Counted from the stretch's first letter, positions 19,993 to 57,083 are shown. The stretch is 64,000 bases of DNA from Octopus sinensis (GCF_006345805.1 NC_043014.1:8184001-8248000); one strand, 5' to 3'. The notes: generated from the letters alone by a model not told the origin. Program-made: numbers and translations.

Positions 19993-20033
19993 CCTTAATC
20001 GATTTTCGAACCTTATTGGGTTCTTATCAGAGG
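19993..20033 (-). ncRNA. Minimal type-I hammerhead ribozyme motif, degenerate (G8A)
   Basis: cct-CTGATAA-gaacc caataa ggttc-GAAA-A TCGA T-TA-agg. Confidence 0.6.
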
Positions 20034-20816
20034 CATCCGCATCATTTTGACAATCTCCAGAGAAACGATCAGCCAAACTGTTTTTACATTAAACAAATGC
20101 AGCAGTTGCTCTATAAAGGAGTCCCTAATTTACATACTGAAAGTGTTTAACACTCTATAAATACCAGCGGCCTGTCAACGGGGCTATATATGTATATTCA
20201 TATATTACGGAAAAGAGTTATTCACCATATGTATCCATAAAAACAAATCTTTCCTATACAATCAGAAAATACTTCCATCAGCAACGGCTAGCTACCCAAC
20301 AAATCGACGTTCGAAATGAACAAACAGTGCTTTTTTTCTCTCTCTCAATTAGAAAACTCACCATTTACACTCCGCTGTACACTCGGAGCCAATACAGCGT
20401 ACATACCAGCATCTTTATGCAATAGCACTTCTTAATATTTTATCAAATCTACTTAGACAACCCAGCTACCCACAACAATACTTACACCAAAAAATGTTAA
20501 ACATTTAAGTTATTCTTGCATAACAAAAATCCACATATCTAAAAAGTTTCGTAGTTAAAACTTGTTTCTCTCACAATTGCTAAAAATTCAGGGGCTCAAC
20601 TTACGGTTAAATATCACCGATTAACCACCCGTTACAAACAAAACATACATTCACTCACGTGTGACATTTTTTTTTTACCTCACAAATTTCCTGCTTACTA
20701 TTGACCATCTTGAGGTGTATCTAAAGGCAACCTGATGAGTGGAGGAGACGATAATAATGGGTAAGTCAAAGCATAGTTAAATATCTTTCTCTGAACTAAA
20801 AACTTGCGATCTCTTA

Positions 20817-21370
20817 TCCTTATATATAAAAATGAAGTTGTGTGTGTGTCTGTCTACTCCGATTTAGATTCCTAACTACTCCCACATTTTGCGGTGCAGT
20901 TTAACCAAAACCGGGTATCTTATAGTCGTGATTCATATAGAGCCCTTCTGGGTACTAGCGCGCGTCTACGATGAGTCTACGATTTTAAAAAAATTACCAT
21001 CATTTTTCCGCATTTTTAATTATTTTTGCTCGGTTTATATAAGGGAAGTAACTCTCAAAAAATGCTTATATATGTTTTCGAACGTTATATTGTATATAGT
21101 GCATAAACATGCGCCGCTTATTGTTGGAAGCCGTAATAATGATAGGTTTTCGGAAACTTCAAGCGGCTATCTGAAATCTTTGTCACTACACGAGAGTTTC
21201 TTTTGGTTTCTTATATATTTTGTGCGTGTCTATGTTTAGGGTTAATGTAACGTCTAGAAAGTTAACTGTATTCATGCTTTTGGTTGTTGTTATTTTAAAG
21301 ATGAAATTGTAGAAAGTGCTGGTCCAACCGTTTTCAAATTAGTCTGTGGCTATCGCCACGATGGGATTAG
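20817..21370 (+). mobile_element. Non-autonomous Helitron with an alternative 3' end
   Basis: A|TC start; first ~255 bp match 40736-41044; hairpin tgtggc-tatc-gccacg followed by TTAG|T. Confidence 0.65.
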
Positions 21371-21440
21371 TTCGTCATATTTTGATTGGGTAAGTGACAT
21401 ACAGACATATCTAAGACAGCGGTATCAGTCACCTGTTCAA

Positions 21441-21858
21441 AAGGCGGCGAGCTGGCAGAATCGTTAGCGCGCCGGGCGAAATGCTTAGCGGTATTTCGTC
21501 TGCCGCTACGTTCTGAGTTCAAATTCCGCCGAGGTCGACTTTGCCTTTCATCCTTTCGGGGTCGATTAAATAAGTACCAGTTACGCACTGGGGTCGATAT
21601 AATCGACTTAATCCGCTTGTCTGTCCTTGTTTATTCCCTCTGTGTTTAGCCCCTTGTGGGCAATAAAGGAACAGGTATTTCGTCTGTCGTTACGTTCTGA
21701 GCTCAAATTCCGTTGAGGTCGACTTTGCCTTTCATGCTTTCGGGGTCGATTAAATAAGTACCAGTTACGCACTATGGGTCGATATAATCGACTTAATCCG
21801 TTTATCTGTCCCTGTTTGTCCCCTCTGTGTTTAGCCCCTTCTGGGTAGTAAAGAAATA
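21441..21858 (+). mobile_element. SINE family A, head plus 2 units
   Basis: 19-bp TSD ggtatcagtcacctgttca at 21421 and 21859; empty-site homolog at ~7231-7290. Confidence 0.93.
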
Positions 21859-22100
21859 GGTATCAGTCACCTGTTCAGCTATCTAGACCTTATATCTAAA
21901 CCCGTTAATTAATTTTAAAGAAAAGTGAATATATAAATGGTTTCAAACACAGGTTGTGTCTATTTTTTTTATTTACGCAGCGTATGTGGTGTCAAAATAA
22001 AAAGTGTTTTCTTTGCATGCATAATGATTCATTAATGATATATATATATATGCACCCTCCCACACATACTCATACATACATTTATGAGTATATATATAAT

Positions 22101-22149
<49 letters not shown>

Positions 22150-22994
22150 AATTCAAATTATTACATTATATAAAAGGGCTTAGTAAAATAAATTACTTTG
22201 CCGCATACTGAACTCATTAGAAATAGCAGCTAAAAAAACTTTTTTAAAACTATTTCCAATACTTAAAGAAAACCTCTCTCATATAGTGTTTGCTCAATTC
22301 AACTCACGCAAATATGGGGGTAGAGACATTAAAAAATCAAGTGCAAAGGTTATTTGAGAACGTACGTTTCAAGATTAGTCAAAATTCGACATTTCTATCA
22401 TCAGCTCAGAACTCCCTGGTTTGGATTTGAAACACACTGAAAGTAGGAGCATACCCTTTCGGCTTCCTCTCGCTTCTGAAGATCTGCTCGTAACTAACAG
22501 TGCCAACAAACTCAAAAATGCAAGCGAAGAATTTCTGCTCTCCCCTTTCCACCAGCGTGGGTTAAAATCAGTAACACACTATGCTTTTTTCGGTAAAACC
22601 GCGGCATTATATAGAGAGAGATGAATTAAATATTTTCAACAATTGAGGGTAAAATAATTAATTAATCAATTTCACCAAGTATTCAGTATGCAAAGGGACC
22701 ATTTAAGGCGAATTCAAATTATTACATTATATAAAAGGGCTTAGTAAAATAAATTATTTGCGTGAGTTGAATTGAGCAAACACTATATGAGAGAGGTTTT
22801 CTTTAAGTATTGGAAATAGTTTTAAAAAAGTTTTTTTAGCTGCTATTTCTAATGAGTTCAGTATGCGGCAAAGTAATTTATTTTACTAAGCCCTTTTATA
22901 TAATGTAATAATTTGAATTCGCCTTAAATGGTCCCTTTGCATACTGAATACTTGGTGAAATTGATTAATTAATTAATTTTACCCTCAATTGTTG

Positions 22995-22998
<4 letters not shown>
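22150..22998. mobile_element. Penelope pseudo-LTR/retrozyme-like element: 561-bp unit plus tandem overlap plus inversion
   Basis: 22150-22196 repeated at 22711-22756; 22755-22998 is an inverted copy spanning the unit junction; (TA)n flanks. Confidence 0.8.
22355..22408 (-). ncRNA. Type-I hammerhead ribozyme motif
   Basis: tgag-CTGATGA-stem II-GAAAC gtac GTT-ctca. Confidence 0.75.
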
Positions 22999-23050
<52 letters not shown>

Positions 23051-23084
23051 CCTCCCACACACACTCATACATACATTTATGAGA

Positions 23085-23140
<56 letters not shown>

Positions 23141-24127
23141 CCTCCCACAGACACTCATACATACATTTATGAGTACTCTGGGACTTTGTTTAGATATATA
23201 TCATTAATGAATCATTATGTATGCAAAGAAAACACTTCTTTTTTTGACATCACATACGCTGCGTTAATAAAAAAATAGACACAACCTGTGTTTGAAACCA
23301 TTTATATATTCACTTTTCTTTAAAATGAATTAACGAGTATGTATGTATGTATGTATGTATGTATGTATGTATGTGTACATAGCATATATGGTACATAGCA
23401 TATAAGTTATGCGAAACGTAATGGGTCTTCCATACCTTTTAATGAAACAACGCGTGATCGAATTAAAACGTGTTTGTCTCCAAAATAAAATCACGTAAAC
23501 AAAAGGGAGATACGAAGTTGTTTTCACATTAAGGCAAAAGAAAATAGGATATGATACGATGAGAAGCAGAAGAATAACACGTGTTGAAATGCGTGTTGCA
23601 TATAAATGAGCTGTAATTGTCATTATAATTTTGTCTTAAGACTATTTTAATTATAATTGAAATCTATGATGGTTCTTTACGTTCTGAGTTCAAACTCCAC
23701 CGATGATACCTTTGCCTTTCATCATTTCGGGTTTGATAAAATAAATTACCAATCAAATATTGGGTTCGATGTAATCTGCTAACCCTCTAGACCTTAAATC
23801 GCGGTTTAGTGCCATCGACCCCAGTGTTCATCGACCCCGAAAGGATGAACGGTAAAGTCGACCTCGGCGGAATTTGAAATCAGAACGTTAGCGACCTATT
23901 TCTTTACTACCCACAAGGGGACAAACACGGAGAGGACAAACAAGGACAGACATACGGATTAAGTCGATTACATCGACCCCAGTGCGTAACTGGTACTTAA
24001 TTTATCGACCCCGAAAGGATGAAAGGTAAAGTCGACCTCGGCGGAATTTGAACTCACAACGTAACGGCAGATGAAATACCGCTAAGTATTTCGCCCGGCG
24101 TGCTAACGTTTCTGCCAGCTCACCACT

Positions 24128-24188
<61 letters not shown>

Positions 24189-24190
<2 letters not shown>

Positions 24191-24643
24191 TGACTGTCCC
24201 AATCGATATAAACGTATCTGTCAAGAGCTACCAAAAACAGAGCAAATATAAATATCTTGAAATAGAAATCAGCAAAATGTGGAACCTGAAGACTAAAACA
24301 ATACCTGCTGTCATAGGTGCCCTGGGAATGATAGCAAAAGGGGATGATTGCTACCTAACTCAGATACCAGGAAACCCCAAAATGGCAGAAATTCAAAAGA
24401 TAGTGCTCATGGGAACTGCTCATATCCTACGCAAAATACTCTCTATGTAATCCCAAGGTTTAAAACAAACTTTTTTTTTTTAATTTATGTATTAGATATT
24501 CACTAGTACAACACCAAAAAAAAAACCAAATATATGGCACACTAGGCATAACAACAACATGAACTTCCAACCTGTTGTCTCTTGAGGTCTCTGGGTAAGA
24601 CTTGGAGTCAACTTGTACAGACATAAAGCAAAAGTCAAACATA
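24189..24643 (+). mobile_element. R4/Dong 3' fragment
   Basis: MTVPIDINVSVK..ILRKILSM plus 3' UTR, between (AAT)n tracts. Confidence 0.92.
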
Positions 24644-25001
24644 GAATAATAATAATAATTTCTTTATTGGCCACCAGGGCCGAACACAATAAATGGAGGA
24701 CGATACACAGATGAGGGACAATGAGGCTAAGCGTATAAACAGCCAAGAAACACAACAATTAACAAAGAGATTAAATTAACAATATGGTTCCCCAATAGGA
24801 TGGAGTTCCGCCGTAAGGTGACCAAAGAGATCTCACGCACTTTGGACTCCTTAACACCAACGGCTCCTCAGGAAGACACCTTTTCTTCTCCTTTCTATCT
24901 GGCCTACAGGCGCACAATTAGAGCAGGCCCATTTACGCTGTTCATTCTTGCCACATTCACCCACCTTTCAACGATTTTACTGGGTGACGGTACCTTCTTC
25001 T

Positions 25002-25234
25002 AAGGTGGCGAGCTGGCAGAATCGTTAGCACGCCGGGCGAAATGCTTAGCGGTATTTCGTCTGGCGCTACGTTCAGAGTTCAAATTCCGCTGAGGTCCAC
25101 TTTGCCTTTCATCCTCTCGTGGTCGATTAAATAAGTACCAGTTACGCACTGGGGTCGATATAATCGACTTAATCGGTTTGTCTGTCCTTGTTTGTCCCCT
25201 CTGTGTTTGGCCCCTTGTGGGTAGTAAAGAAATA
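25002..25234 (+). mobile_element. SINE family A
   Basis: TSD ggtaccttcYtct at 24989 and 25235. Confidence 0.92.
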
Positions 25235-25569
25235 GGTACCTTCCTCTCCAGCCTCACTTCCCTTTTCAGATGGAAATGGACCGTCTGACAAGCGGTACCT
25301 ATCCCTTCCACGGGAAGCAGAGGAGCAAACGCACCAGCCCGCTCAGCTACGAAGCGGAACAAGGGACGGCATTCAGGTGGTAGTATATGATGAATGCAAT
25401 ATACGCATTCGCCACCTTCATCCATTTCTGGTTGGGACTGGCCACCCTGTCTGTCACCTCGCCCCAGATCGTGTCCACTAGCAGATCCAGACCGAACTAG
25501 ACCCCGAGCAACTTAACAGGTTCTTCTTTCGTCCAGCGCCCCACCACGCTGTCGTTTGGTATGGGCCTG

Positions 25570-28284: not shown

Positions 28285-28345
<61 letters not shown>

Positions 28346-28909: not shown

Positions 28910-29382
28910 ATTCTTTTATCTTCTTTATCTTTATCTAGTTTCAACTCACGAGCTGTGGCCATGCTGGGGCACCGCCATTTTGGTATTGCTAAATTATTAT
29001 ACTTCACGAATGCTTTTTAGCAATTGCCATTTGGTGCATGAGAGAGTTCGATGCAGCTGCCCTCATCTGCACCTCCTGTCGTGAAGTTGGTTCATCTGGG
29101 ACATCTGACAAGAAGAGATCCAGTTTTATTTTAAAGACATCTGCATCCACCCCATGCAGGTCTCTCAGGTTCTTCGGGAGGATATTGAAGAGCTGTGGGC
29201 CTCTGAAGCCCAGGCTAACACAGTATCTTGTCCTACATCTTGATGGCAAATTTGGAGTCCTTGGCACTATGCAGTGGTGCCCAGTTCTGGCATTTGTGTA
29301 ACTCTCGATGCCAAAGTTCGGGACAAGTCCTTCTAGGATCTTCCAGATGTATATTATGGCATATCTTTCTCGCCTACGCTCT
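28910..29382 (-). mobile_element. 3' fragment of a CR1-group LINE
   Basis: ERRRERYAIIYIWKIL..GPQLFNILP..FKIKLDLFL; short tandem-repeat tail. Confidence 0.8.
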
Positions 29383-29637: not shown

Positions 29638-29675
<38 letters not shown>

Positions 29676-32944: not shown

Positions 32945-33785
32945 AAGAAGAGAAGAAGAAGAAGAGAAGAGAAGAAGAAGAAGAAAGAAGAAGAAGAAGA
33001 GAAGAAAGAAGAAGAAGAAGAGAATAGTAATAATGTCATGTATGTAAACAGCAAAATGAAACCATAATCGTGTTGTCTCCATGTGCTGTCTTCTTGCGCC
33101 TACAGAGTTTCTCAACAAGCATGATAGAGCGGCACAGAATATTAACTGGGTAATTTGCAAAAACCTGGACCTGCCCCATGATAAAAAAACTGGTGGGAAC
33201 ATAAACCACTTCCAGTTCTTGAAAATGATCACATCTCACTCCGGAACTTCACCGTTCAAACTAACAGAAAGGCAGATGCGAATAGACCAGACATATTGAA
33301 AGACTTCAGGCAAAAATCATGCCTCCTCGTTGATATGACTGTCCCAATCGACATAAATATATCTGTCAAGACCTACCAAAAACTGAGCAAGTATAAAGAT
33401 CTTGAAATAGAAATTGGTAAAATGTGGAACTTCAAGACTAAAGCAATACCTGTTGTCATAGGTGCCCTAGGAATGATAGCAAAAGGGGCTGATTCCTACC
33501 TAGCTGAGATACCAGGAAACCCCAAAATGGCAGAAATTCAAAGGCTAGTACTCATGGGAACTGCCCATATCTTACGTAAAATACTGTCTATGTAATCTCA
33601 AATTTTAAAACAAACATAATTTTCTTGTTTTCTTAAACATCCTCTAGAACAATACTATGTACAAAACCTAAAATATTTGACACCATAGGCATAACATCAA
33701 ATGGACTTCTAAATTGTTGTCTCTTGAAGTCTCTAGGTGAGACTTGCAGTCAACTTGTACAAATAAAAAGCAAAAGTCAACCATA
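32634..33785 (+). mobile_element. Two R4/Dong 3' fragments (32634-32832, UTR only; 33037-33785, frameshifted)
   Basis: Match to ~14240-15012; flanked by AAT/AAG repeats. Confidence 0.88.
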
Positions 33786-34564
33786 TAATAATGATAATAG
33801 CAATGATGATGATGATGGTTGCTCCTGTTGATTTCGACGCATGAGTGTTTGAATGAGAGGATTTAAAAGAGAGAGGGGCAGAGAAGGAGAGAGGGGGAGC
33901 GAAGAAAAACAGCTTTAAAAAAAGAACAAAAAAAGGAATCTGCATCTACTGGCGATGGATGCGTGAATGTAATTTGAGTTCAAGTATGGATTTTGCTATG
34001 TGAACGCAATGGGGGACACGGATGATTTTGATTTTTGCTTGGGTTTGAGTAAATGTGTCTGTTGATTACAGGATATTCTTTTATTGTTGTTTTTTTTTGT
34101 TTTTTTGTTTTTTCTCAACTCAAACTGTTTTTATGCATCATGACACATCTTTACGCCATGCAGATCGTTCCAGGCAATGACTTTCCCAAGATATCAGGTT
34201 AAGCTGTAGAGATTTTAGTGATCGCTTCAACTTATCCTTATACCTAAAGACAGGTCCTCCTTTACTGGATATCCCTCCACTTGTTGGCCATACAAAAGAA
34301 TTTTTGGAATGTGATCGTCTTTCTTGTCCAATTACACTTAATTCTCAGCAATATACTTCGGATGCTGGAGATATCAAATTTTTCTAAAATTTTGACGTTT
34401 CTGATATTCTATTTGAAAAGAAAAGTAAGGGTTGAGAAGGATCTGGTGCCCTGACCCCAGTAAATTTATTAACAAATAAGTGACTGTAATGAGGATGATC
34501 CGGTGAGCGAGCCAACACCAAGCAGGTGTCTGGAGGCTGAGTAAGAAGGAGGTAGGAGTACTTA

Positions 34565-35355
34565 CCTATTTCTTTACTACCCACAAGGGGCTAAACACAG
34601 AGAGGATAAACAAGGACAGACAAACGGATTAAGTCGATTATATCGACCCCAGTGCGTAACTGGTACTTATTTAATCGACCCCGAAAGGATGAATGGCAAA
34701 GTCGACCTCGGCGGAATTTGAACTCAGAACGTAACGGCAGACGAAATACCTATTTATTTATTACCCACAAGGGGCTAAACATAGGGAGGATAAACAATGA
34801 CAGACAAACGGATTAAACCGATTATATCGACCCCAGTGCGTAACTAGTACTTATTTAATAGACCCCGAAAGAATGAAAGGCAAAGTCGACCTCGGCGGAA
34901 TTTGAGCTCAGAATGTATTGGCAGACGAAATACCCATTTCTTTACTACCCACAAGGGGCTAAACATAGGGAGGATAAACAATGACAGACAAACGGATTAA
35001 ACCGATTATATCGACCCCAGTGCGTAACTAGTACTTATTTAATAGATCCCGAAAGGATGAAAGGCAAAGTCGACCTCGGCGGAATTTGAACTCAGAACGT
35101 AAGCAGGCAGACGAAATACCTATTTCTTTACTACCCACAAGGGGCTAAACACAGAGAGGAGATAAACAAGGACAGACAAACGGATTAAGTCGATTATATC
35201 GACCCCAGTGCGTAACTGGTACTTATTTAATCGACCCCGAATGGATGAAAGGCAAAGTCGACCTCGGCGGAATTTGAACTCAGAACGTAACGGCAGACGG
35301 AATACTGCTAAGCATTTCGCCCGGCGTGCTAACGTTTCTGCCAGCTCGACGCCTT
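34565..35355 (-). repeat. SINE A tandem array (head plus 4 units)
   Basis: ~184-bp units joined aaagaaata|ggtatttcgtc. Confidence 0.9.
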
Positions 35356-36752: not shown

Positions 36753-37110
36753 TAAACAGGCTCAGTAAACAAGCAAAAAGTATTAATAGAATAAAACTGG
36801 GGAATTATTAATATGAGAACAATCCGCACAAAAACCGGTCTTGAATACAGTACAAACATGGATGCTAATCACATCAATAAATATACAAAGAAAGCCTGTA
36901 TAAACTGAATGGGAAAATAAAGACCTAGTTAAGAGTGTTGGTAGACGATGGGAAAGGCATAAGCTATAGTTGTGTAAAAGTACAACTTTGTTCGCTTACA
37001 ATATAAATAAAAGTACATTTACTACATAAAAAAAAAGTGGCAACAATGGCAGAGAAACACCTTACCTCCATCCATTCGTCGTCAAATGGTAAAGAGAAAG
37101 AGAAGGATAC

Positions 37111-38260
37111 CTATTTCTTTACTACCCACAAGGGGCTAAACACAGAGAGGACAAACAAGGACAGACAAACGGATTAAGTCGATTATATCGACCCCAGTGC
37201 GTAACTGGTACTTATTTAATCGACCCCGAAAGGATGAAAGGCAAAATCGACCTCGGCGGAATTTGAACTCAGAACGTAGCGGCAGACGAAATACCTATTT
37301 CTTTACTACCCACAAGGGGCTAAACACAGAGAGGACAAACAAGGACAGACAAACGGATTAAGTCGATTATATCGACCCCAGTGCGTAACTGGTACTTATT
37401 TAATCGACCCCGAAAGGATGAAAGGCAAAGTCGACCTCGGCGGAATTTGAACTCAGAACGTAGCGGCAGACGAAATACCTATTTCTTACTACCCACAAGG
37501 GGGCTAACACAGAGAGGACAAACAAGGACAAACAAAATTAATTAAGTCGATTATATCGCACCAGTGCGTAACTGGTACTTATTTAATCGACCCGAAAGGA
37601 TGAAAGGCAAAGTCGACCTCGGCGGAATTTGAACTCAGAACGTAGCGGCAGACGAAATACCTATTTCTTTACTACCACAAGGGGCTAAACACAGAGAGGA
37701 CAAACAAGGACAGACAAACGGATTAAGTCGATTATATCGGCACCAGTGCGTAACTGGTACTTATTTAATAGACCCCGAAAGGATGAAAGACAAAGTCGAC
37801 CTCGGCGGAATTTGAACTCAGAACGTAGCGGCAGACAAAATACCTATTTCTTTACTACTCACAAGGGGCTAAACACAGAGAGGACAAACAAGGACAGACA
37901 AACGGATTAAGTCGATTATATTGACACCAGTGCGTAACTGGTACTTATTTAATCGACCCCGAAAGGATGAAAGGCAAAGTCGACCTCGGCGGAATTTGAA
38001 CTCAGAACGTAGCGGCAGACGAAATACCTATTTCTTTACTACCCACAAGGGGCTAAACATAGAGGGGACAAACAAAGACAGACAAACGGATTAAGTCGAT
38101 TATATCGACACCAGTGCGTAACAGGTACTTATTTAATCGACCCCGAAAGGATGAAAGGCAAAGTCGACCTCGGCGGAATTTGAACTCAGAACGTAGCGGC
38201 AGACGAAATACGGCTACGCATTTCTCCCGGCGTGCTAACGATTCTGCCAGCTCGCCGCCT
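37111..38260 (-). repeat. SINE A tandem array (head plus 6 units, 184-bp period)
   Basis: ctatttc at 37111, 37295 and onward; single tRNA head at the 38260 end. Confidence 0.93.
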
Positions 38261-38558
38261 TCCAAGGAGTTTCAAATTGTCACTCGAGTAGCCTAAAAAT
38301 AAATAGCAAAAGTTACAGAACCACTACAAGAAACAAACAAGAATTAAGAGAACGAAATAAGAAAAACCTCACTAGATAGTCACGCATCTGCGCAAGCACG
38401 GAGAGAACACGAAGGACATCAAAAGCAACAAAGCAGAGCAAGCAGGTACAGCAACAACTAGAGTAACTTCTTGCATTTTCTCCGACAAACAGTTTCATTT
38501 TGGGTAAGATGTGCAAATATACATAATCTAGGGTAAGTTTGGAAACAAGGTTAGAAGA

Positions 38559-39140
38559 CAGGGGGCTAAACATAGAGGGGACAAACAAGGACAGACATAA
38601 GTATTAAGTCGATTACATCGACTCCAATGCGTAATTGGTACTTATTTAATCGACCCCGAAAGAATGAAAGGCAAAGTCGACCTCGGCGGAATTTGAACTC
38701 AGAACGTAACGGCAGACGAAATACCTATTTATTTACTACCCACAAGGGGTTAAACACAGAGAGGACAAACAAGGACAGACAACTGATTAGTCGATTACAT
38801 AGACTCCAATGCGTAATTGGTACTTATTTAATCGACCCCGAAAGAATGAAAGGCAAAGTCGACCTCGGCGGAATTTGAACTCAGAACGTAGCGGCAGACG
38901 AAATACCTATTTATTTACTACCCACAAGGGGTTAAACACAGAGAGGACAAACAAGGACAGACAAACTGATTAAGTCGATTATATCGATACCAGTGCGTAA
39001 CAGGTACTTATTTAATTGACCCCGAAAGGATGAAAGGCAAAGTCGACCTCGGTGGAATTTGAACTCAGAACGTAACGGCAGACGAAATACAGCTACGCAT
39101 TTCGCCCGGCGTGCTAACGTTTCTGCCAACTCGCCGCCTT
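38559..39140 (-). repeat. SINE A tandem array (3 units)
   Basis: Same units; shares its head-side flank with the 42025-42820 array. Confidence 0.88.
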
Positions 39141-41667: not shown

Positions 41668-42024
41668 ATAACTGACAATATGTTCGTCTCAAATCATGAG
41701 CAGAATTAGTGGGGAGTATCATAGCCTTGTTAAGAGGGATTCTTTGGGAAATGAATAAATGTAACAAAGGCAAAGTTTGAAAGAAATGTTAACCATTCAC
41801 CATATATTTTAGGGATAAGCAAATAGGAAATGACAGCTGTTATCCAAGGACAAAAATCGTGTTACAGAATGTCATTGTGACAGGTTCGATCCGCTGGCTC
41901 CGAAGGGATACACATCTGTGATAGATTTTTTATTACCGCTGCCTAATTTTCCTCAGATTTTACAAACCTTTTGCCTTCTATCATTTCACAGTTTTGTTTT
42001 CTATGAACAATAGAAACATTTCTT

Positions 42025-42820
42025 ATTTCTTTATTGCCTACAAAGGGCTAAAGACAGAGGAGCCAAACAAGACAGGCAAAGAGATTAATTCGATTACATC
42101 GACCCCAGTGAGTAACTGGTACTTAATTTATCGATCCCGAAAGGATGAAAGGTAAAGTCGACCTCGGTGGAATTTGAACTCAGACGAAATACCTATTTCT
42201 ATTTCTTTACTACCCACAAGGGGCAAAATACAGAGAGAACAAACAAGGACAGACAAACGGATTAAGTCGATTATATCGACCCCAGTGCATGACTGGTACT
42301 TATTTAATCGACCCCGAAAGGGTGAAAGGCAAAGTCGACCTCGGCGGAATTTGAACTCAGAACGTAGCGGCAGACGAAATACCTATTTCTTTATTACCCA
42401 CAAGGGGCTAAACATAGAGGGGACAAACAAGGACAGACATAGGTATTAAGTCGATTACATCGACCCCAGTGCGTAACTAGTACTTATCTAATCCACCCCG
42501 AAAGGATGAAAGGCAAAGTCGATCTCGGCGGAATTTGAACTCAGAACATATACATACATATACATATACATATACAGACGAAATACCTATTTCTTTATTA
42601 CCCACAAGGGGCTACACATAGAGGGGACAAACAAGGACAGACATAAGTATTAAGTCGATTACATCGACCCCAGTGCGTAACTGGTACTTATTTAATCGAC
42701 CCCGAAAGGATGAAAGGCAAAGTCGACCTCGGTGGAATTTGAACTCAGAACATAACGGCAGACGAAATACGGCTACGCATTTCGCCCGGTGTGCTAACGT
42801 TTCTGCCAACTCGCCGCCTT
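42025..42820 (-). repeat. SINE A tandem array (4 units)
   Basis: TSD aacaatagaaacatttctt on both sides. Confidence 0.88.
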
Positions 42821-44252: not shown

Positions 44253-44675
44253 AAGTAAGTGAATGAATTATTCTATGTTTATCGTCAGCATGGAAAATTC
44301 GTTTAACCGAAACCTGGGTAGCAAATTCACGTCAGAAAACACGGTTGAAGCGACCTGACAAGGGTAGAAACTCTGGGTTCATGTGTAGAAATTTGTGTGT
44401 TGTATATGAATAAATGAAAGAATGGAGTCGAACGAAGATGTTAACAAAATTCCTTTACTCTCGACACATTATCGCTTTGTTTACCATGTAGGCAATCATC
44501 GAAACTTTTGTTTGTCTTGTTGTCGAGAGAGGCTCCCTTTCTTTCCTGATGAGGAGATTGCATAATGCACCCTTTATTCCTTTGGAATGAGAACATGCTG
44601 TCTTCGAAACATGTGTCGAGAGTAAAGGAATTTTGTTAACATCTTCGTTCGACTCCATTCTTTCATTTATTCATA
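44253..44675. mobile_element. Fold-back hammerhead element, family H1 copy 1
   Basis: 44405-44470 is inverted at 44610-44675; homologous to 46000-46544 and 46631-46892; (TA)n flanks. Confidence 0.82.
44541..44622 (+). ncRNA. Type-I hammerhead ribozyme motif (GUC)
   Basis: ctttc-CTGATGA-ggaga..tcttc-GAAAC atgt GTC-gagag. Confidence 0.85.
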
Positions 44676-44767: not shown

Positions 44768-44810
<43 letters not shown>

Positions 44811-45123
44811 TCGATTAGAAGTTGTGTTAACCTCATGAAGGGATGGTTTCACCCAAGAAAATTCTGATTCAATACCTAGTATTTGGGGGGAATAGATTTC
44901 CTTAAAATAAAAGGTATATATAAAGCATATAGTTATTATCCATTTAAAAGAAGAAAAGAAAAAGGATATTAGGAAGTGAATGATTGTTTATTATTAACAA
45001 TAAATTGATCATTTTCACTTCTTACAGCTGTTTCAATTAATTTTCAATAATTTAATTAATTTACTAACAAATTTGTACATTAAATTTACATTTATGCGAC
45101 ACGAGTATAATTTCGTCTTGTAA

Positions 45124-45228
45124 TTTTCTGATGAAATTATGCTCATGTCACATAAATGTAAGTTTAATGTAGAAATTTGTAATTGAATTAATTAAACCAT
45201 TGAGTATTAATTGAAACGGCTGTAAGAA
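45124..45228 (+). ncRNA. Type-I hammerhead ribozyme motif (GUA) with a long stem II
   Basis: tttt-CTGATGA-aatta..taatt-GAAAC ggct GTA-agaa; the opposite arm has GAAAC agct GTA. Confidence 0.7.
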
Positions 45229-45280
45229 GTGAGGATCACCAATTTATTGTTAATAATAAACAATTATTAACTTCCTAATC

Positions 45281-45917: not shown

Positions 45918-46002
<85 letters not shown>

Positions 46003-46199
46003 TAAGTAGTTGAATGAATTATTCTAGTATGGATAATTCGGTTAACCGATACCCGGGTAGCAAATTTACGTCAGAAGGCACGGTTGAAGCTACATACCAA
46101 GGGCAGAAATCACGTGCTTTCGTATGGAAATTTGTGTGTTTTTTTACTATAGATAAATGAAAGAATGGAGTCGAACGACGATTTAACAAAATTCCTTTA

Positions 46200-46282
46200 T
46201 TCTCGACATATGTTTCGAAGACTGCATATTCTTAATTCCGAAGGAATAAAGGGTGCATTATGCCGTCTTCTCATCAGGAAAG
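46200..46282 (-). ncRNA. Type-I hammerhead ribozyme motif (GUC)
   Basis: Reverse complement of 46423-46505. Confidence 0.87.
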
Positions 46283-46422
46283 ACAAGGAACTTATGTCAG
46301 CATCATGACGAACAAAAACTTTAAGATGACTGCCCACACGGGGTCCATTGTGATAATGATGCTGACATAAGTTCATAGTGTCATAAGTTCATAGTGTCAT
46401 GATGCTGACATAAGTTCCTTGT

Positions 46423-46505
46423 CTTTCCTGATGAGAAGACGGCATAATGCACCCTTTATTCCTTCGGAATTAAGAATATGCAGTCTTCGAAACATATGTC
46501 GAGAA
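46423..46505 (+). ncRNA. Type-I hammerhead ribozyme motif (GUC)
   Basis: tttc-CTGATGA-gaagacggcata..tatgcagtcttc-GAAAC atat GTC-gaga; palindromic ACATATGT stem III. Confidence 0.88.
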
Positions 46506-46546
46506 TAAAGGAATTTTGTTAAATCGTCGTTCGACTCCATTCTTAT

Positions 46547-46630: not shown

Positions 46631-46633
<3 letters not shown>

Positions 46634-46888
46634 GGATGAATGAATTATCCATTGTTTACCGTTAACATGGAAAATTCAATAAACAGTTATCAGGTTAGCA
46701 AAATTCACGCAAGTAACAAGGATGTAGCGACCTATTCAAAGGTAGAAACTCTGGGTTAATGTGCAGTAATTTGTGTAGTGTAAGTAAATAAATGCAGTTG
46801 AACGCAGAATAAGACCAATGTTGTCTTCGAAACATATGTCGAAAGTAAAAGAATTTGAATAGCATCTGCGTTCAACTCCATTTATTTA

Positions 46889-46892
<4 letters not shown>
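46631..46892. mobile_element. Family H1 copy 3, with only the 3' half of the hammerhead
   Basis: gtcttcGAAACatatGTCgaaag at 46823-46845; short inverted arms. Confidence 0.75.
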
Positions 46893-47176: not shown

Positions 47177-48089
47177 TGTGATTTCAGAGAGATTTAGCTG
47201 CTGTTTCTAGCAGACAGAGGCTACCTCGTTGGCACGGTCTATTACTGTTGAAGTCTTGTAAGCGATTTATCCTTCTTTACTTAAAACGGTATTCTGTGAT
47301 TTCAAAGAGATTTAGCTGCTGTTTCTAGCAGACATGCTACCTCGTAGGCACGGTCTATTACTGTTGAAGTCTTGTTAACGATTTATCCTTCTTTAGTTAA
47401 AACGGTATTCTGTGATTTCAGAGAGATTTAGCAGCTGTTTCTAGCAGACATGCTACCTCGTAGGCACGGTCTATTACTGTTGAAGTCTTGTTAACGATTT
47501 ATCCTTCTTTAGTTAAAACGGTATTCTGTGATTTCAGAGAGATTTAGCTGCTGTTTCTAGCAGACAGAGGCTACCTCGTTGGCACGTTCTATTACTGTTG
47601 AGGTCTTGTTTGCGATTTATCCTTCTTTACTTAAAACGGTATTCTGTGATTTCAAAGAGATTTAGCTGCTGTTTCTAGCAGACATGCTACCTCGTAGGCA
47701 CGGTCTATTACTGTTGAAGTCTTGTTAACGATTTATCCTTCTTTAGTTAAAACGGTATTCTGTGATTTCAGAGAGATTTAGCTGCTGTTTCTAGCAGACA
47801 GAGGCTACCTCGTTGGCACGTTCTATTACTGTTGAGGTCTTGTTTGCGATTTATCCTTCTTTACTTAAAACGGTATTCTGTGATTTCAGAGAGATTTAGC
47901 AGCTGTTTCTAGCAGACATGCTACCTCATAGGCACATTCTATTACTGTTGAAGTCTTGTTAGCGATTTATCCTTCTTTACTTAAAACGGTATTCTGTGAT
48001 TTCAAAGAGATGTAGCTGCTGTTTCTAGCAGACAGAGGCTACCTCGTTGGCACTTTCTTTTACTGTTGAGGTCTTGTTTGCGATTTATC
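47177..48089 (+). repeat. 116/118-bp tandem satellite, ~8 units
   Basis: Unit starts at 47177, 47295, 47411, 47527, 47645, 47761, 47879, 47995. Confidence 0.95.
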
Positions 48090-48259: not shown

Positions 48260-49200
48260 AAGGTGGCGAGCTGGCAGAAACGTTAGCACGCCGGGGCGAA
48301 ATGCTTAGCGGTATTTCGTCAGCCGTTTCGTTCTGAGTTCAAATTCCGCCGAGGTCGACTTTGCCTTCATCCTTTCGGGGTCGATAAATAAGTACCATTA
48401 CGCATTGGGGTCGATGTATCGACTTAATACCTATGTCTGTCCTTGTTTGTCCCCTCTGTGTTTAGCCCCTTGTGGTAGAAAGAAATAGGTATTTTGTCTG
48501 TCGTTACTTCTGAGTTCAAATTCCGCCAGGGTCGACTTTGCCTTTCATCCTTCCGGGGTCGATAAATTAAGTACCAGTTAAGCACTGGGGTCGATATAAT
48601 CGACTTAATCCGTTTGTCTGTCCTTGTTTGTCCCCTCTATGTGTAGCCCCTTGTGGGTAATAAAGAAATAGGTATTTCGTCTGCGTTACGTTGTGAGTTC
48701 AAATTCCACCGAGGTCGACTTTACCTTTCATCCTTTCGGGGTCGATAAATTAAGTACCAGTTACGCACTGGGGTCGATGTAATCGACTTAATACCTATGT
48801 CTGTCCTTGTTTGTCCCCTCTGTGCTTAGCCCCTTGTGGGTAATAAAGAAATAGGTATTTCGTCTGCGTTACGTTGTGAATCAATTCCGCCGAGGTCGAC
48901 TTTGCCTTTCATCCTTTCGGGGTCGATAAATTAAGTACCAGTTACGCACTGGGGTCGATTAATCGACTTAATAATACCTATGTCTGTCCTTGTTTGTCCC
49001 CTCTGTGCTTAGCCCCTTGTGGGTAATAAAGAAATAGGTATTTCGTCTGCGTTACGTTGTGAGTTCAAATTCCGCCGAGGTCGACTTTGCCTTTCATCCT
49101 TTCGGGGTCGATAAATTAAGTACCAGTTTCGCACTGGGGTCGATGTAAATGACTTAATCCCTTTGCCTGTCCTTGTTTGTCCCCTCTATGTTTAGCCCCT
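48260..49200 (+). repeat. SINE A tandem array (head plus 5 units)
   Basis: Units joined gaaata|ggtattt. Confidence 0.92.
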
Positions 49201-49289
49201 ATCACTCCAACACCACTATCCTCACCGGAACCCATCACTGCCCCAAACAATTCACCAACTCTCTTACCTGCACCTCCTTCTGTTGCTGT

Positions 49290-49660: not shown

Positions 49661-50022
49661 GCAGCTCCTGCTCTCACTGTCCTTCCCTGTACATTGGTTC
49701 AAACGGGACGCTGCTTGGCCGACCGGTTCACTGAGCACCTCCGAGCCATCATATTCGGCAATGATACCCTGATCTCACACCACTTCTTCTACTCATCCGG
49801 TCATTCTCTACGACATCTGTCTATGTTTGAAGTGTCTTTGCTCAGTGGCCACCCGCGTTTCACCTCCTCTGTAAACAAGAATTAACTTTCCCCCTTTCTT
49901 TATTTGCTCCTTCTGGCCTTAATTTGCCACCTCTCTTCATCTAAAAGCAACCCACACACCTCTCATCGTTAACTTCCCCTCTCCTCAGCCTCCACACCTC
50001 CACACCGCCTAACTCAATACTT

Positions 50023-50788
50023 TCACCACACACACACCACTATACGAACACCCCTGCACACTTTTCAACTGAGTACTCACTACACACACCCACATACACC
50101 TTTCCACTCCACACACACTAGCACCCACACTCACAAGTATCCTCACCACACACCACTATTCGAACACCCCTGCACACTGTTCAACTCAGTACTCACTACA
50201 CACACCCACATACACCTTTCCACTCCACACACACCAGCACCCACACTCACAAGTATCCTCACCACACACCACTATTCGAACACCCCTGCACACTTTTCAA
50301 CTCAGTACTCACTACACACACCCACATACACCTTTCCACTCCACACACACTAGCACCCACACTCACAAGTATCCTCACCACACACCACTATTCAAACACC
50401 CCTGCACACTTTTCAACTCAGTACTCACTACACACACCCACATACACCTTTCCACTCCACACACACTAGCACCCACACTCACAAGTATCCTCACCACACA
50501 CCACTATTCGAACACCCCTGCACACTTTTCAACTCAGTACTCACTACACACACCCACATACACCTTTCCACTCCACACACACTAGCACCCACACTCACAA
50601 GTATCCTCACCACACACCACTATTCGAACACCCCTGCACACTGTTCAACTCAGTACTCACTACACACACCCACATACACCTTTCCACTCCACACACACTA
50701 GCACCCACACTCACAAGTATCCTCACCACACACCATTATACGAACACCCCTGCACACTTTTCAACTCAGTACTCACTACACACACCAT
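50023..50788 (+). repeat. 116-bp CA-rich tandem repeat, ~6.5 units
   Basis: c(g/a)aacacccctgcacac at 50045, 50161, 50277, 50393, 50509, 50625, 50741. Confidence 0.95.
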
Positions 50789-51667: not shown

Positions 51668-52160
51668 TATACACACGTCCATATGCGCGCATACACACAC
51701 ACACACACGGATACGTGAAACGCACATCACTCCACACAGTGCACACACTAAGTTACTTATACACATACACACACACACACTCCCATATGCATACACAATC
51801 CCAGATAATTTTAAGCTCGCCCATACATTTACATGCGCTCACTCCCTTTCACACAAATACACTCATCCTTCTTAGATACACACGCGTTTGTGCACCCTAG
51901 TTCAGCTGGGTCACCGTTATTTTCTCCCTTTCACTCTACATTTTTCTTCCGATCATTTCATCATGTTGAACTTATTAATCCCTACACCTTTTTTTCTCTC
52001 CCTTTTTTTTTTCTTTTTGTTCTCACTCCATTTTTTTCCTCTTAACATTTACTGTCGAAGAGTGTAGGCTCGAAACTTTTCCGTTCTTCCGGAGAGTCAA
52101 ACTAATACACCTTCTCGTAGTTCTCTCACATGCCTTCGTCTTTTGTTTTCAGTAAAATTG

Positions 52161-52219
<59 letters not shown>

Positions 52220-52320
52220 TATATATATATATAATGTAGGTCCTGGGTTGAGTCGGGGTTAACCACAGTAAATAAGGTACTCAATACATAGCAGAGTAAA
52301 GTAATTTATTTTATAGAAGG

Positions 52321-52371
52321 AGCTTCTACAGGACTAGAACTGTTTCATTCAGATGAAATCTTCAGGAAGCT
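52321..52371 (-). ncRNA. Type-I hammerhead ribozyme motif with a complete stem III (GUA)
   Basis: agcttc-CTGAAGA-tttcatctgaat-GAAACAG ttctagtc CTGTA-gaagct. Confidence 0.82.
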
Positions 52372-52752
52372 GGCTGTCAAAATAAGTTCTGGTATTTATG
52401 CATTTAGGCAGATTTAATGGAGTGGTGGTGGGGGGGGACGTTTTTTGGGTAGGTTGGTATTTAGGAGATAAACAGGGCACAAGCTATTGTTCTTAGGGGA
52501 GTGGTCTAAAGGCCAGAGTGTTTTTTGAAATGAGAAGAATCAGTGAGAAAATAAAAGAATAAATAGAACAAATGAATAGAAACCCCAAGATTAGTATTTC
52601 AACAGATATATGGGATGGGATTTTAGGTAAATTAGAAGACAATTGCTTTTTGGTGGTCAAGAAGAGGTAGGCAGTTTGTTATTGTTAGGTGGAGGGAATG
52701 AATAGATAAATATACATGAAAAAACATAAAAAATATTTTTAAAAAAATATAC

Positions 52753-52881
52753 TTACAAACACACATACATACACGTGCGAATATACACATACACGTGCGA
52801 ATATACATATGTATACATACGCACATATATATATACATACATACACATACATATATATATATATTTACATATACATACACA

Positions 52882-52915
<34 letters not shown>

Positions 52916-52974
52916 CGTATATATATATATACATATATACACCTACATACACACACACACGCACATATATATAT

Positions 52975-53016
<42 letters not shown>

Positions 53017-53513
53017 CAAATATACATAAGTATACATGCATAAATTTACCCATGTACATATAAACATATACATAATTATGCATATATAAACACATACATA
53101 AATATACACATGTACACACAAACACACACATAAATATATACACGGATATATATACACATATGCACATATAAAAACATATGTGTATATAAATATATATACG
53201 CATATATAAGCATACATACGCATATAAATGTGTATATGCATATATAAATACACACATGCATATACATACACACACACATATATATACATACACATACATA
53301 CACGTACATACATATACATATCTACACATATACACATATATATATACCCATACATAAATCTACATGTCCATATATATATATATATATATATACGTACATC
53401 CATACACAAATATACATGCATACACACATACATTTATATACAAATACACATGTATATATAAATACACATACGCATACATAAATATATACATGGATATACA
53501 CATACATATACAT

Positions 53514-53558
<45 letters not shown>

Positions 53559-53794
53559 ATACACATATACAAACATGCATATATATATATACACATATAC
53601 ACATATACATACATACATACACACATATAAATACACATATATGCATATACATATATACATACATAAACATATACATATGTATATACATACATATAAATAT
53701 ATATATACACATGTACACACATACATACATAAATACATACACACACATACAAACACATGTACACATACACACACACACACACACATGTATACAT

Positions 53795-53841
<47 letters not shown>

Positions 53842-53992
53842 CGCGTATACATACATATGCACATATATACACATACATACACATACACGCATACACATAC
53901 ATATGTACATATACATATGCACATATACATATATATGCACATATATACACAAATGTGCATACATACATATGTATATACATATATATGCATAT
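52753..53992. repeat. Degenerate (TA)n/(CA)n microsatellite
   Basis: Direct reading. Confidence 0.95.
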
Positions 53993-54179
53993 AGTCTTAA
54001 GAGAGAAGGTAATTGGGGGTGATGAATGAACGGTGGTGTGGTGGGGGGTGGGGGTGTTTTGTGGGTGGGGTGTTGTCAGTCGGGTGGCCGGGTGGGTCCG
54101 TAATTTTTGTAGTTTGCATAGATTTTGTGCATACAGTTTGGGGAGTGTTCCGAGATCTTGTATGCATGTACATATATAT

Positions 54180-56610
54180 GCGTAAATACCTCGACCGTGT
54201 CCTTGCCCCCCTAGTGGCATCTCTTCCCTCCCACATCCACGATACCAACCATGCTCTCCGGCTTTTCAACTCTTTCTCTTTTCCTCCCGGCTCCTCCAAA
54301 TCCTCCTTTTTACTATGGACATCCAAGCCTCTATACTGTTATCCCCACCACGAAGGACTGCAGGCCCTTCGACACTTTCTTGACCTCCGTCTAAACCCTG
54401 TCCTGACACCTCCACACTCATTCGTCTGCCGAACTTGTCCTTTCTGAACTGCTTCTCGTTCGCGGGCGAGTTCTACCATCAGGTCTCGGGAGTGGCCATG
54501 GGAACGCGAATGGGCCCCAACTATGCGAACCTGTTCGTTGGCTATGTTGAGCCCAAATATTCTCTAATTTCACTGTCCCACTCCTGAACGATATGGTCGT
54601 TACATTGACGACATTATCGGTGCCACCTCACTCGCCGTGAACATCTAGATTCCTTCTCCTCTTTCGTCCAATCTTCCATCCAGCCTCCACTTCACTCCAC
54701 TATCTCCAACACCTCTGTCTCCTTCCTCGACATTTCGGTTAGCATTTTCACTCCACTCTTACCACCTCCATCACTACAAACACACAGACTCACACTCATA
54801 CCTCAACTTCTCTTCCTCCCACCCAGAACACACCAAGCTTTCCATCCCCTATTCCCAATTCCTCCGTCTACGTAGGCTCTGTAGTGACGACCATGACTTT
54901 GAGACTCAGTCTCAACGTATGGCTCACCACTTCACCCTACGTGGATAACCCTCCACTATCCACACCGCCCTTGCCAGAGCACGGTCCGTGGACCGTGTAT
55001 CTGCTCTCTCTCCCCGAACCCGCCCTGTATTCTCCCGCCTCCCTTTTCCCCTCACTTACCACCCCACGACCCTACGTCTCCAACGCACCATTCTTCGAGC
55101 TTCCGTCATCTCCGTCCGACCCGTCCACTTCACACCTCTTCCCTAACCGACCCCTCCCCTCTTTAAAACGAGCCCACACCTTCGAGACCTTTTGGTCCAT
55201 AGCTCCTTCCTGACCCTACTCCAACACCGGCTCGTTCCCCTGCTCCCGCCCACATTGCTGCACTTGCCCTTACCTCTCCAACACCACCCGCCTCACTAGC
55301 ACCCACCATCGACCCTATCCCATCATCCACTCCTTCACCTGCACCTCCAGCAATATTATCTATTGCGTCTCTTGCTCTCTCTGCAATTCCTTGTACATCG
55401 GACAAACGGGACGCCGCTTGGCTGACCGGTTCGCGGAACACCTTCGTGACATCCACCTTGCGAACGAACACCGGTCTCACGCCATTTCCGCTCCACCGGT
55501 CACTCCTTGCAACACCTATCTGTGTTCGGTTTGTCCTTACACAGAGGCCATCCGGATTCCGTTTGCCGCGCGCCGTGAACAGGAATTAATCTTCTCTCTT
55601 CGCTCTTTTATACGCCATTTGGTCTCACTCTCTCCCCCCCCTCCTCATCAACCCCCCTCTCCCCTCCTCACCTATCCTTCCCCCCGACCCCTACTTCTTC
55701 AGTCCTTCATCCTTTCACCCCTACTCCCCTTCCCTCTTCCCCTCCTCCTTCCTCTGCTCCCTCACTCCCTTCTCTCTCCCCTCCCCCTCTTTCCTCTTTC
55801 CTCCTTCCTCCCCCTCCTCCTCCCCTTCCTTCTCCCCTCCTCTCCTCTTCCCCCCTCCCTCTCCTCTCCCCCTCCCCCCCTCTTCTTCCCCTCCCCTTCT
55901 CCCCTCTTCTCCCCTCCCCCTCTTCTCCTCACTACACCACACGACTTTACACATCACATCATATATGATGTGCCATACTAATACATACACCAACTAATAC
56001 ATACTAATACGTACTAATACATACTAATAACTACTAATACATACACCAACCCTATACAACACACGTCCAGACCCCATACGCACTTATACTCTCTCATACC
56101 ACACACACACACTTATACATACTAATACGTACTAATACATACTAATACATACTAATACATACACCAACCCCATACATACGCCTGTCCAGACCTATCCTAC
56201 GCACTAATACTCTCTCATACACACACACACACACACCCTTATACATACTAATACATACACCAACCCTATACATACACACGTCCAGGCCCCTCCTACGCAC
56301 TAATAGGTGGTCATTCAACCCTGTTATCAACCCTATTATCTCCCCTTATTTCGCTCTTGCGTCTCATGTTTGATCTTTGACTTCTGGCCGAAATCAGATC
56401 GCCATGTTGATTCGTTAGTTACTGCACGCATTTTTTTTCTCTCCTTCTTTCTGTGTTTTTTTTCTCTCTGTGTATCTTTCTGTTGAAGAGCGTAGGCTCG
56501 AAACGTTAAAGCATTGTTTTATTTATATTTCCTGAGCGCCATACTAATACAATTGTTTGTTTGTTTTCCACCTGCCTTCGTCTTTTGTCTATTTTCATAA
56601 AGCTTCCCGT

Positions 56611-56611
<1 letters not shown>
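54180..56611 (+). mobile_element. 5'-truncated Penelope-like retroelement (RT plus GIY-YIG, Neptune-like Cys linker), frameshifted
   Basis: GVAMGTRMGPNYANLF, RYIDDI, FLDI, IPYSQFLRLRRLCS, CxxxxCCxC, IIYCVSC..LYIGQTGR..RFAEH; ends at (TA)n. Confidence 0.92.
56476..56511 (+). ncRNA. Variant minimal hammerhead in a Penelope pLTR (CUGUUGA core)
   Basis: cttt-CTGTTGA-a-gagc gtag gctc-GAAACGTT-aaag; sister motif CTGTCGA at 52052-52076. Confidence 0.55.
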
Positions 56612-56664
<53 letters not shown>

Positions 56665-56673
<9 letters not shown>

Positions 56674-57083
56674 GTCAAATGCGATACAATAAAAATTATT
56701 ATTATCGCCGGTGTTCTAGTACACGCCATATATTATTCATATATAAGTACATAAAAGGCGAAGTGTGTACTAGATACACAAAAGCTGGATAAATTTAATG
56801 AGATGAAAATTAAAAACTTTTACAAACTTAGTTCTTCTTATACTGCAGTTTCGCCTATTTCAGCAATAAAAATAATATTTATTTACTCAGGTAGGCTCTT
56901 CAGTAAGATTCCTGTTATTATGGGAAGCGCACATCAATAGAGGCACGTGCGTCTATTAAATTGCTCTTTCTAAACTATTCAAATCACTGCGCAGACTCAG
57001 AACGTACCCGACAAAATAGGGTTTTATGGTATATCGTCTAACGCTCAAAAATTTATCGAGAAAATACGTAAACAAAGTCAAAT
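56665..57083 (-). mobile_element. ORF-less 403-bp terminally redundant hammerhead element (retrozyme-like)
   Basis: gtaaacaaagtcaaat at 56665 and 57068; (TA)n on both sides; internal hammerhead. Confidence 0.8.
56836..56908 (-). ncRNA. Type-I hammerhead ribozyme motif (GUA)
   Basis: tctta-CTGAAGA-gccta..taggc-GAAAC tgca GTA-taaga; stem I and the base of stem II pair perfectly, palindromic stem III. Confidence 0.9.

Follow-up and report, generated by a model that had tools for sequence, protein, structure and literature searches.

Hammerhead-bearing insertions in (TA)n microsatellites of Octopus sinensis: probable 3' ends of several Penelope-like element families and associated retrozymes

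We analysed a 64,000-nucleotide stretch of the Octopus sinensis genome (GCF_006345805.1 NC_043014.1:8184001-8248000, hereafter the window) that contains eleven sites with complete, variant or partial hammerhead ribozyme motifs. The window very probably collects the 3' ends of several families of Penelope-like elements (PLEs), together with tandem retrozymes that have no open reading frame (ORF) and would borrow the PLE enzymes. The hammerheads are located in pseudo-long terminal repeats (pLTRs), and the ORF-bearing elements to which they belong are of Hydra type for families A and G and of Neptune type for family C. All-against-all blastn separated seven families, where an initial annotation had counted at least six: A comprises the sites 44541, 46200, 46423 and 46829, C comprises 56476 and 52052, and B, D, E, F and G showed no cross-match at E<1e-3.

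Hammerhead sites, families and (TA)n microsatellites

Insertion of these elements into (TA)n, as the initial annotation had proposed, was borne out by counts at their 3' ends. The 3' end lies at most 20 nt from (TA)4+ in 27/30 loci of family A, 25/30 of B, 20/30 of C, 18/30 of D, 11/30 of E, 28/30 of G and 11/27 of F, the loci being the best-scoring copies with some duplicates of one array included. Only 2.2-4.3% of background positions are near (TA)4+, and a control repeat that we take to be similar to a short interspersed element (SINE) gave 0/71 and 4/71 at its two ends. The low figure for family E reflects internal array units and the second, tailed end of its insertions. In the window copies the fixed 3' ends lie 43-211 nt downstream of the predicted cleavage site, and the 5' ends are ragged; for family B the 5' ends are also within 20 nt of a microsatellite in 27/30 loci. 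Every family is multicopy, with 1,073-2,149 first-look genome candidates (not copy numbers) for each of A, B, D, E, F and G.

The features of the window are listed below, in positions counted from its first letter.

19920..20190, minus strand: family D copy; unit of ~300 bp, repeated in tandem at L259; (TA)n 19902-19919 at the 3' end; 5' end approximate
19993..20033, minus strand: family D hammerhead; palindrome AATCGATT; G8A in the window copy
22148..22996: family E insertion; 559-bp ORF-less unit on the minus strand (22148-22759) and inverted tailed arm (22755-22996); (TA)n on both sides
22355..22408, minus strand: hammerhead of family E with a core of Hydra type, CUGAUGAU...UGAA; palindrome ACGTACGT; cleavage predicted at GUU
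44254..44672: copy from a subfamily of A, with a tailed arm in inverted orientation; (TA)n at either end
44541..44622, plus strand: family A hammerhead; long stem II, ACATGTGT, GUC
44808..45279: family F insertion; inverted tailed arm and main arm; another repeat interrupts at 45280
45124..45228, plus strand: family F hammerhead; 78-nt stem II region, ACGGCTGT in the window copy, GUA
46000..46545: family A two-armed insertion; tailed arm on the minus strand, short arm on the plus strand; (TA)n at either end; stub of the 3' part of a Hydra-type PLE
46201..46281, minus strand: family A hammerhead; ACATATGT, GUC
46424..46504, plus strand: family A hammerhead; ACATATGT, GUC
46631..46890: relative of family A, cut short within stem II; 3' half of the hammerhead only, 46829-46846
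49670..49945, plus strand: degraded Neptune GIY-YIG C-terminus
52049..52163, plus strand: relative of family C; dead hammerhead with a U6 core and without the 3' strand of stem I; ends on (TA)n 52164
52234..54170, minus strand: family G, 5'-truncated Hydra-type PLE; last endonuclease residues ~54115-54160, microsatellite-rich 3' untranslated region (UTR) of ~1.8 kb, pLTR
52321..52371, minus strand: hammerhead of family G with a core of Hydra type, CUGAAGAU...UGAA; insert of 14 nt in stem III; GUA
54163..55623, plus strand: Neptune PLE ORF, 5'-truncated and frameshifted; reverse transcriptase (RT) core, CX4CxxC linker, GIY-YIG
56476..56511, plus strand: family C minimal hammerhead; U6 (CUGUUGA+A), ACGT palindrome and GUU; (TA)n follows the end of the element at 56610
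56665..57076, minus strand: family B ORF-less retrozyme; 404-bp unit, copy slightly longer than one unit; tail-to-tail with C across (TA)n 56611-56664
56836..56908, minus strand: hammerhead of family B, canonical throughout; ACTGCAGT; GUA here, GUC in the majority of copies

All eleven hammerhead sites of the initial annotation were present where it had placed them (11/11), and the four palindromes that it named were correct. A full CUGANGA...GAAA core was observed at seven sites (22404-, 44546+, 45128+, 46277-, 46428+, 52365- and 56903-). The family-D copy at 19993- reads CTGATAA, a G8A change that breaks C3-G8, and this hammerhead is probably dead; most other family-D copies read CTGATGA. 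At 56480+ (family C) the core is CTGTTGA+A, with U at position 6, and the family-C relative at 52052+ (CTGTCGA+A), the second window site with U at this position, has lost the 3' strand of stem I. Only GAAA-CATATG-TC, the 3' half of a hammerhead, is present at 46829+. The palindromes at 44541+ and 45124+ are imperfect, and the 14-nt insert at 52321- forms a real stem III of 3-4 bp. A type-I core (C3 U4 G5 A6 N7 G8 A9...G12 A13 A14, A15.1-U16.1, H17, with stems I and II) was found in families A, B, E, G and F and in most D copies, with U.U at 10.1-11.1 in families E and G. We considered this U.U and the U at position 17 as possible novelties, but both already occur in published PLE hammerheads.

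A chance origin of these motifs was ruled out by the shuffling control that the initial annotation had suggested: the canonical type-I descriptor gave 6 matches in the window, whereas 100 block-wise dinucleotide shuffles averaged 0.01 and never exceeded 1, the descriptor having been loosened to permit U.U at 10.1-11.1 once candidates had been seen and 3/6 matches belonging to family A. Rfam reported no hammerhead among the 150 matches listed of 208 in the window and none at gathering score in 6 loci; its microRNA matches were microsatellite artefacts. The 8-nt palindromes allow no hairpin and have a self-pairing energy of -6 to -11 kcal/mol, as expected for the dimer-only cleavage described in PMC4209133; for the 4-nt palindrome of family C self-pairing amounts to only -1.7 kcal/mol. 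Judged by eye, the stems show one exchange of C-G for G-C in stem I when Neptune lineages are compared, and two changes in a neighbouring family.

The assignment of these type-I folds to Penelope-related elements stood. The statement that most carrier elements have no ORF held for the copies in the window but not for their families: other copies of A (L248) and G (L250) extend upstream into Hydra-type RT/GIY-YIG ORFs, and the family-C sites follow Neptune ORF remnants. Judged by these extensions, the majority of the window's elements without an ORF are what is left of autonomous PLEs after 5' truncation; the true retrozymes are three families, B, D and E.

Further unrelated hammerhead families were seen near (TA)n in the flanks of L044, L180, L203, L018 and L244, with palindromes of 4-6 nt and, in several of them, a U3-A8 core (TTGACAA, TTGAAGA or TTGACGA variants). 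Going by such motifs, the genome holds many more than seven hammerhead families.

Hydra-type elements, inverted insertions and retrozymes

The ORFs at L248 and L250 are related, with 40% identity over 78 aa of the endonuclease and a CxxC near the C-terminus in both. That of family G (L250) has a CNCNCPDKTTC linker, YIGMT and CDLC...E...LN...CMH. That of family A (L248:1977-3377, minus strand) has YIGAT and CGLC...E...VN; linker cysteines were not seen, and a long Asn/Ser-rich insert occupies their expected position even though the element targets (TA)n, which bears on the proposal that the linker directs targeting. L248 gave no Pfam match, and Atlas gave GIY-YIG only as an 11% lead. The copies of A and G that we examined are 5'-truncated and do not reach the RWK and DKT motifs of the N-terminal RT region. 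Both families combine the (TA)n insertion (27/30 and 28/30) and the 3' hammerhead that characterise Hydra elements.

Hydra PLEs were described with canonical hammerheads and a preference for (TA)n (Craig et al. 2021, PMC8557442). As that source presents them, they resemble the elements studied here in their C-terminal GIY-YIG with CxxC/CxH, in a hammerhead near the 3' end (often CUGANGAU...UGAA), in (TA)n insertion and in an inverted 5' copy tailed at one end. They differ in tail length (30-40 bp, against ~70-150 nt in the window families), and family G differs from them by its 1.8-kb microsatellite-rich 3' UTR. The initial annotation knew of no cephalopod description, but Hydra-1_Obim of Octopus bimaculoides has been published with a (TA)n preference and a canonical hammerhead (PMC8557442 Files S1, S2); by eye, its motif in File S2 is matched by none of the seven window hammerheads. 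The same source lists TA-preferring Naiads from four cephalopods and states that the role of PLE hammerheads is unclear, and 235 Hammerhead_1 loci were reported in the giant squid (PMC6962438).

The window also contains, at 52760-54000, a long (TA/CA)n-rich stretch that is apparently internal to the 3' UTR of family G and is common to other copies (L250). Such elements would thus carry microsatellites as well as targeting them.

Tailed inverted insertions are left by families A, E, F and G and not by C, B and D. In family A (29 independent loci), the arms of 16/16 inverted insertions end at different fixed sites ~148 nt apart. Pairs with one short and one long arm made up 16/16 in A, 11/13 in F and 5/7 in G, while inverted pairs were found in 0/30 B loci, 0/30 D loci and 2/60 C rows, the latter without short/long asymmetry. 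Furthermore, the two arms of family-A insertions share a haplotype (3/54 mismatches at polymorphic sites vs 195/850 between loci), and in five family-A pairs the arms have no or almost no overlap. These observations fit two primers on one RNA and do not support an origin from two RNA molecules per insertion. A fixed short/long arm rule for inverted PLE insertions was not found in the literature searched. The family-A pattern agrees with results obtained in vitro with Poseidon of the anole (PMC11167929), where cutting and extension involve both strands, the tail is delimited by two internal starts of RT, and insertion does not need ribozyme cleavage; it differs in tail length and in apparent microhomology.

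Families B and E consist of ORF-less head-to-tail repeats, each with a type-I hammerhead, in several arrays of up to 3-4 (B, 404 bp) and 7 (E, 559 bp) units, and the longest Met-initiated ORF in these arrays has 58 aa in B and 38 aa in E. Family D is tandem at one locus only (L259), where the second motif is damaged; the ORF scan covered B and E. Family E has the Hydra-type core and tailed inversions; B and D are like C in having one 3' end only and in lacking inversions. Among the B rows, 23/30 exceed the 404-bp unit (20/27 without 3 duplicates), with non-integer lengths up to 1466 bp. Units diverge less within an array than between loci (0.33% vs 1.18% in E, 1.2% vs 2.5% in B), and one E array (L242) contains two haplotypes, each present in several units. 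A start of B copies at the cleavage site was considered and rejected, as the 5' ends are scattered with no pile-up at unit position 236, by eye and in a sample that copies cut at the first site could not enter. Contigs from four runs, putatively of RNA, cover families B and C, with no joints or pile-ups listed; they do not resolve strand, ends or level and count neither way on expression.

Non-LTR (non-long terminal repeat) retrozymes are likewise ORF-less head-to-tail units of 300-560 bp with a type-I hammerhead (Cervera and de la Pena 2020, PMC7229834; Li, Clavereau and Pollet 2026). They are known in a mussel and were proposed to be PLE derivatives (PMC7229834; bioRxiv 10.64898/2026.07.22.740005); the latter study, on vertebrates, three insects and one anthozoan, argues that retrozymes derive from PLEs and lack autonomy, and found cleavage in 1/9 tested dimers. 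Fixed 3' ends, (TA)n at both ends and, in family E, tailed inversions tie the window retrozymes to PLE insertion; in the available text of PMC7229834 we found no mention of a microsatellite or target site.

The Neptune lineage of family C and other repeats of the window

In 29/30 best genome matches to the window GIY-YIG a U6 motif follows ~600-940 nt downstream, the 30th having the motif with two changes, and (TA)n is usually found ~125 nt beyond the variant motif. The defining features of Neptune PLEs (RT, then a CX2-5CxxC linker and, C-terminally, GIY-YIG in one ORF, and pLTRs) were found in L253 and L252. L253 contains an 829-codon frame in which RVT_1 (E 1e-7), the CX4CxxC linker CSRPRCRTC and, below cut-off, GIY-YIG (E 0.006) were recognised; L252 is a pLTR-ORF-pLTR with hammerheads 4401 nt apart, and a short TA stretch opens the sequence after the end of its upstream pLTR. 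Long Neptune copies are 94-98% alike, gaps included, and near-intact elements exist that also carry the U6 core. By domain content and order, family C is the 3' end of a Neptune PLE. Judging by order and strand, the GIY-YIG remnant at 49670-49945 is probably the ORF end of the element whose pLTR lies at 52052.

Position 6 of the core is A in the type-I hammerhead, and in this respect family C departs from it, although its fold is hammerhead-like. A 27-nt pattern with T at this position gave 13,318 exact matches in the genome and the same pattern with A gave 140, with 0 for reversed controls; position 7 takes all four bases in both sets of matches. Of 73 copies picked via a downstream motif, 71 have T at position 6, 2 have C and 0 have A, and C3, U4, G5, G8, A9 and G12-U16 are conserved in 69-73/73, position 7 again taking all four bases; many of these loci were first fetched with motif-containing queries, and the sample is not fully independent of the motif. 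A sister Neptune lineage gave 8,108 matches with a U4C core and 4,944 with the canonical core, a count to which CpG decay may add. A stem I C-G in one of these lineages is G-C in the other.

Family C resembles described Neptune PLEs in its RT, CX2-5CxxC linker, GIY-YIG and pLTR-ORF-pLTR arrangement (Cervera and de la Pena 2014, PMC4209133), and its hammerhead shares with their minimal hammerheads the extra nucleotide between 9 and 10.1, the ACGU palindrome and U17, which is common in Fig. S3 of that source. In the rows of that figure that were examined, however, position 6 is A (consensus CUGANGAH), and the sole core variant mentioned in that text is U3-A8. Natural core variants reported elsewhere are A6C (phage Bcep176) and U4C (a viroid) (PMC3088659, PMC7151607). 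As summarised there, the natural A6C variant cleaves at <0.1 per minute, slowly in Mg2+ and with rescue by Mn2+, and A6C in another hammerhead is >10,000-fold slower in Mg2+ relative to Mn2+; by analogy, the A6U core would be slow. Family C differs from these variants in being A6U instead of A6C and in having >13,000 genomic copies in an animal retroelement, vs single examples. An A6U hammerhead core was not found in the literature searched; position-6 variants could be listed in Lunse et al. 2017, which reportedly dealt with hammerhead variants of PLEs, or in the Terminon paper.

The U4C core (CCGAAGA) was also observed in a Hydra-type relative of family A (L011) and in another unrelated family (L077/L209), so that this change arose more than once. 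A long pyrimidine tract is located upstream of the A6U core, for which a splice-acceptor role is conceivable, and CA-rich tandem units of 116-118 bp are present in the 3' UTRs of both Neptune remnants (50031-50786 and 55974-56258).

Besides these elements, the window contains a 116-bp tandem array of ~7.8 copies (47177-48089) in which the descriptors used found no hammerhead. The SINE-like repeat used as control forms 183-185 bp tandem arrays that are not TA-associated (2179-2548, 34563-35305, 37107-39090, 42018-42754, 48310-49200 and 59003-59370). Translations revealed, by eye, fragments of Tc1/mariner-like transposases (5396-6277 +, 7586-7960 + and 57588-58067 +) and C-terminal fragments of non-LTR retrotransposons (13929-14795 +, 24190-24450 +, 33185-33595 +, 29004-29330 - and 10710-11830 -), the latter presumably R4/Dong-like, CR1-like and RTE-like.

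Insertion mechanism and significance

In the model that we favor, the GIY-YIG endonuclease of a PLE would nick (TA)n, and RT would prime internally on an RNA of more than unit length, using short stretches rich in UA that lie 43-211 nt downstream of the cleavage site. It would then copy back through an uncut or re-ligated hammerhead and usually stop early, leaving ORF-less stubs. With Hydra-type enzymes, priming would often take place on both strands of the DNA, at two fixed positions of the RNA, and yield inverted arms, one of them tailed. TA would remain on either side of every insertion, so that families accumulate in the same arrays. Owing to the palindromic stem III, cleavage would be restricted to dimers, and in the largest Neptune lineage, with its putatively detuned A6U core, the fold would more likely be a slow or protein-dependent switch, or a scaffold, than an efficient cutter. 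At L252, the RNA template continues beyond the 3' end with a short UA stretch, which suggests priming via brief pairing with nicked (TA)n. Moreover, copies that extend past the hammerhead must have been copied through an intact site, implying an uncut or circular template.

Several points weigh against this model. It is read from sequence throughout, and target-site duplications are unreadable inside (TA)n. The start at UA microhomology differs from the one PLE tested in vitro, for which the start site was not homologous to the target (PMC11167929). A and G are placed in Hydra by motifs and not by a tree. The arm-haplotype test that was clear in family A showed no difference for F (82/313 vs 810/3022) and only a slight one for G (7/21 vs 16/36). 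Finally, the monomer folds are no more stable than shuffles, their RNAfold z-scores being mostly unremarkable (1/9 below -2).

The nature of the template is the part of the model for which an alternative comes closest. In the model of Cervera and de la Pena, circular RNA produced by dimeric hammerhead cleavage and ligation would be copied by rolling-circle reverse transcription; we consider this plausible for at least B and E, while leaning slightly away from it. The B rows of more than one unit and of non-integer length and the homogeneity of units within E and B arrays fit a circle, the B core is canonical, and retrozymes of mussel and coral accumulate as circles according to PMC7229834. However, a read-through linear multimer accounts for the same lengths, the two haplotypes at L242 are not given by a single monomer circle unless by conversion or assembly error, which leaves room for a linear multimer, and the U6 core of C, if inactive, is hard to reconcile with circles. 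As for the enzymes, the initial annotation had a diverse TA-targeted ribozyme system mobilised by a Penelope RT/GIY-YIG, one copy of which it placed at 54180-56611; read in this way, the window's Neptune element would drive a single non-autonomous system. Families B, D and E are indeed ORF-less, B and D share with C its type of 3' end, and near-intact Neptune copies exist, yet that copy is the broken ORF at 54163-55623, A and G have an enzyme type of their own, and E has a Hydra-type core and the inversions that C lacks. Already refuted as a general account, a Neptune-driven system is unlikely. We regard as very unlikely that the (TA)n at 3' ends was made by the elements, as a tail or by slippage: the short UA stretch just beyond the 3' end of templates speaks for it, but ragged 5' ends also lie in microsatellites (27/30 in B), both arms of inverted insertions end in TA, and a preference for (TA)n was published for related clades (PMC8557442). 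The PLE-based insertion model outlined above remains our preferred reading.

For the A6U core we tentatively suggest, from the substitution patterns, that the largest Neptune lineage fixed an inactivating or strongly slowing change while keeping fold and palindrome, its sister being mostly U4C, and that hammerheads may be selected there as RNA scaffolds, for dimerisation or RT binding, or as slow protein- or metal-gated cutters. Neutral hitch-hiking, in which ribozyme function was lost once in a founder element, is a serious rival and a possible, though not a probable, explanation. A single origin suffices for the copy count, cleavage was dispensable for insertion in vitro (PMC11167929), and the mixture of U4C and canonical cores in the sister lineage suggests relaxed constraint. 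On the other hand, a relic would not be expected to keep the rest of the core in 69-73/73 copies beside T at position 6 in 71/73 and A in 0, nor to show the C-G to G-C swap in stem I between the two lineages.

The system itself is already known, and what we add are further members of families described before; apparently neither an A6U core in very many copies nor the strict asymmetry of the arms has been reported. The short/long arm rule supports, from genomic data, a priming on two strands and at two sites that one lizard element was shown to perform in vitro. Since CUGANGA descriptors miss variant copies, published ribozyme counts may be too low. Furthermore, >13,000 A6U copies beside ~4,900 canonical and ~8,100 U4C sister copies allow a direct comparison bearing on the role of PLE hammerheads. 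If the A6U lineage does use its fold as a scaffold or slow cutter, it would constitute a natural experiment on the purpose of PLE hammerheads.

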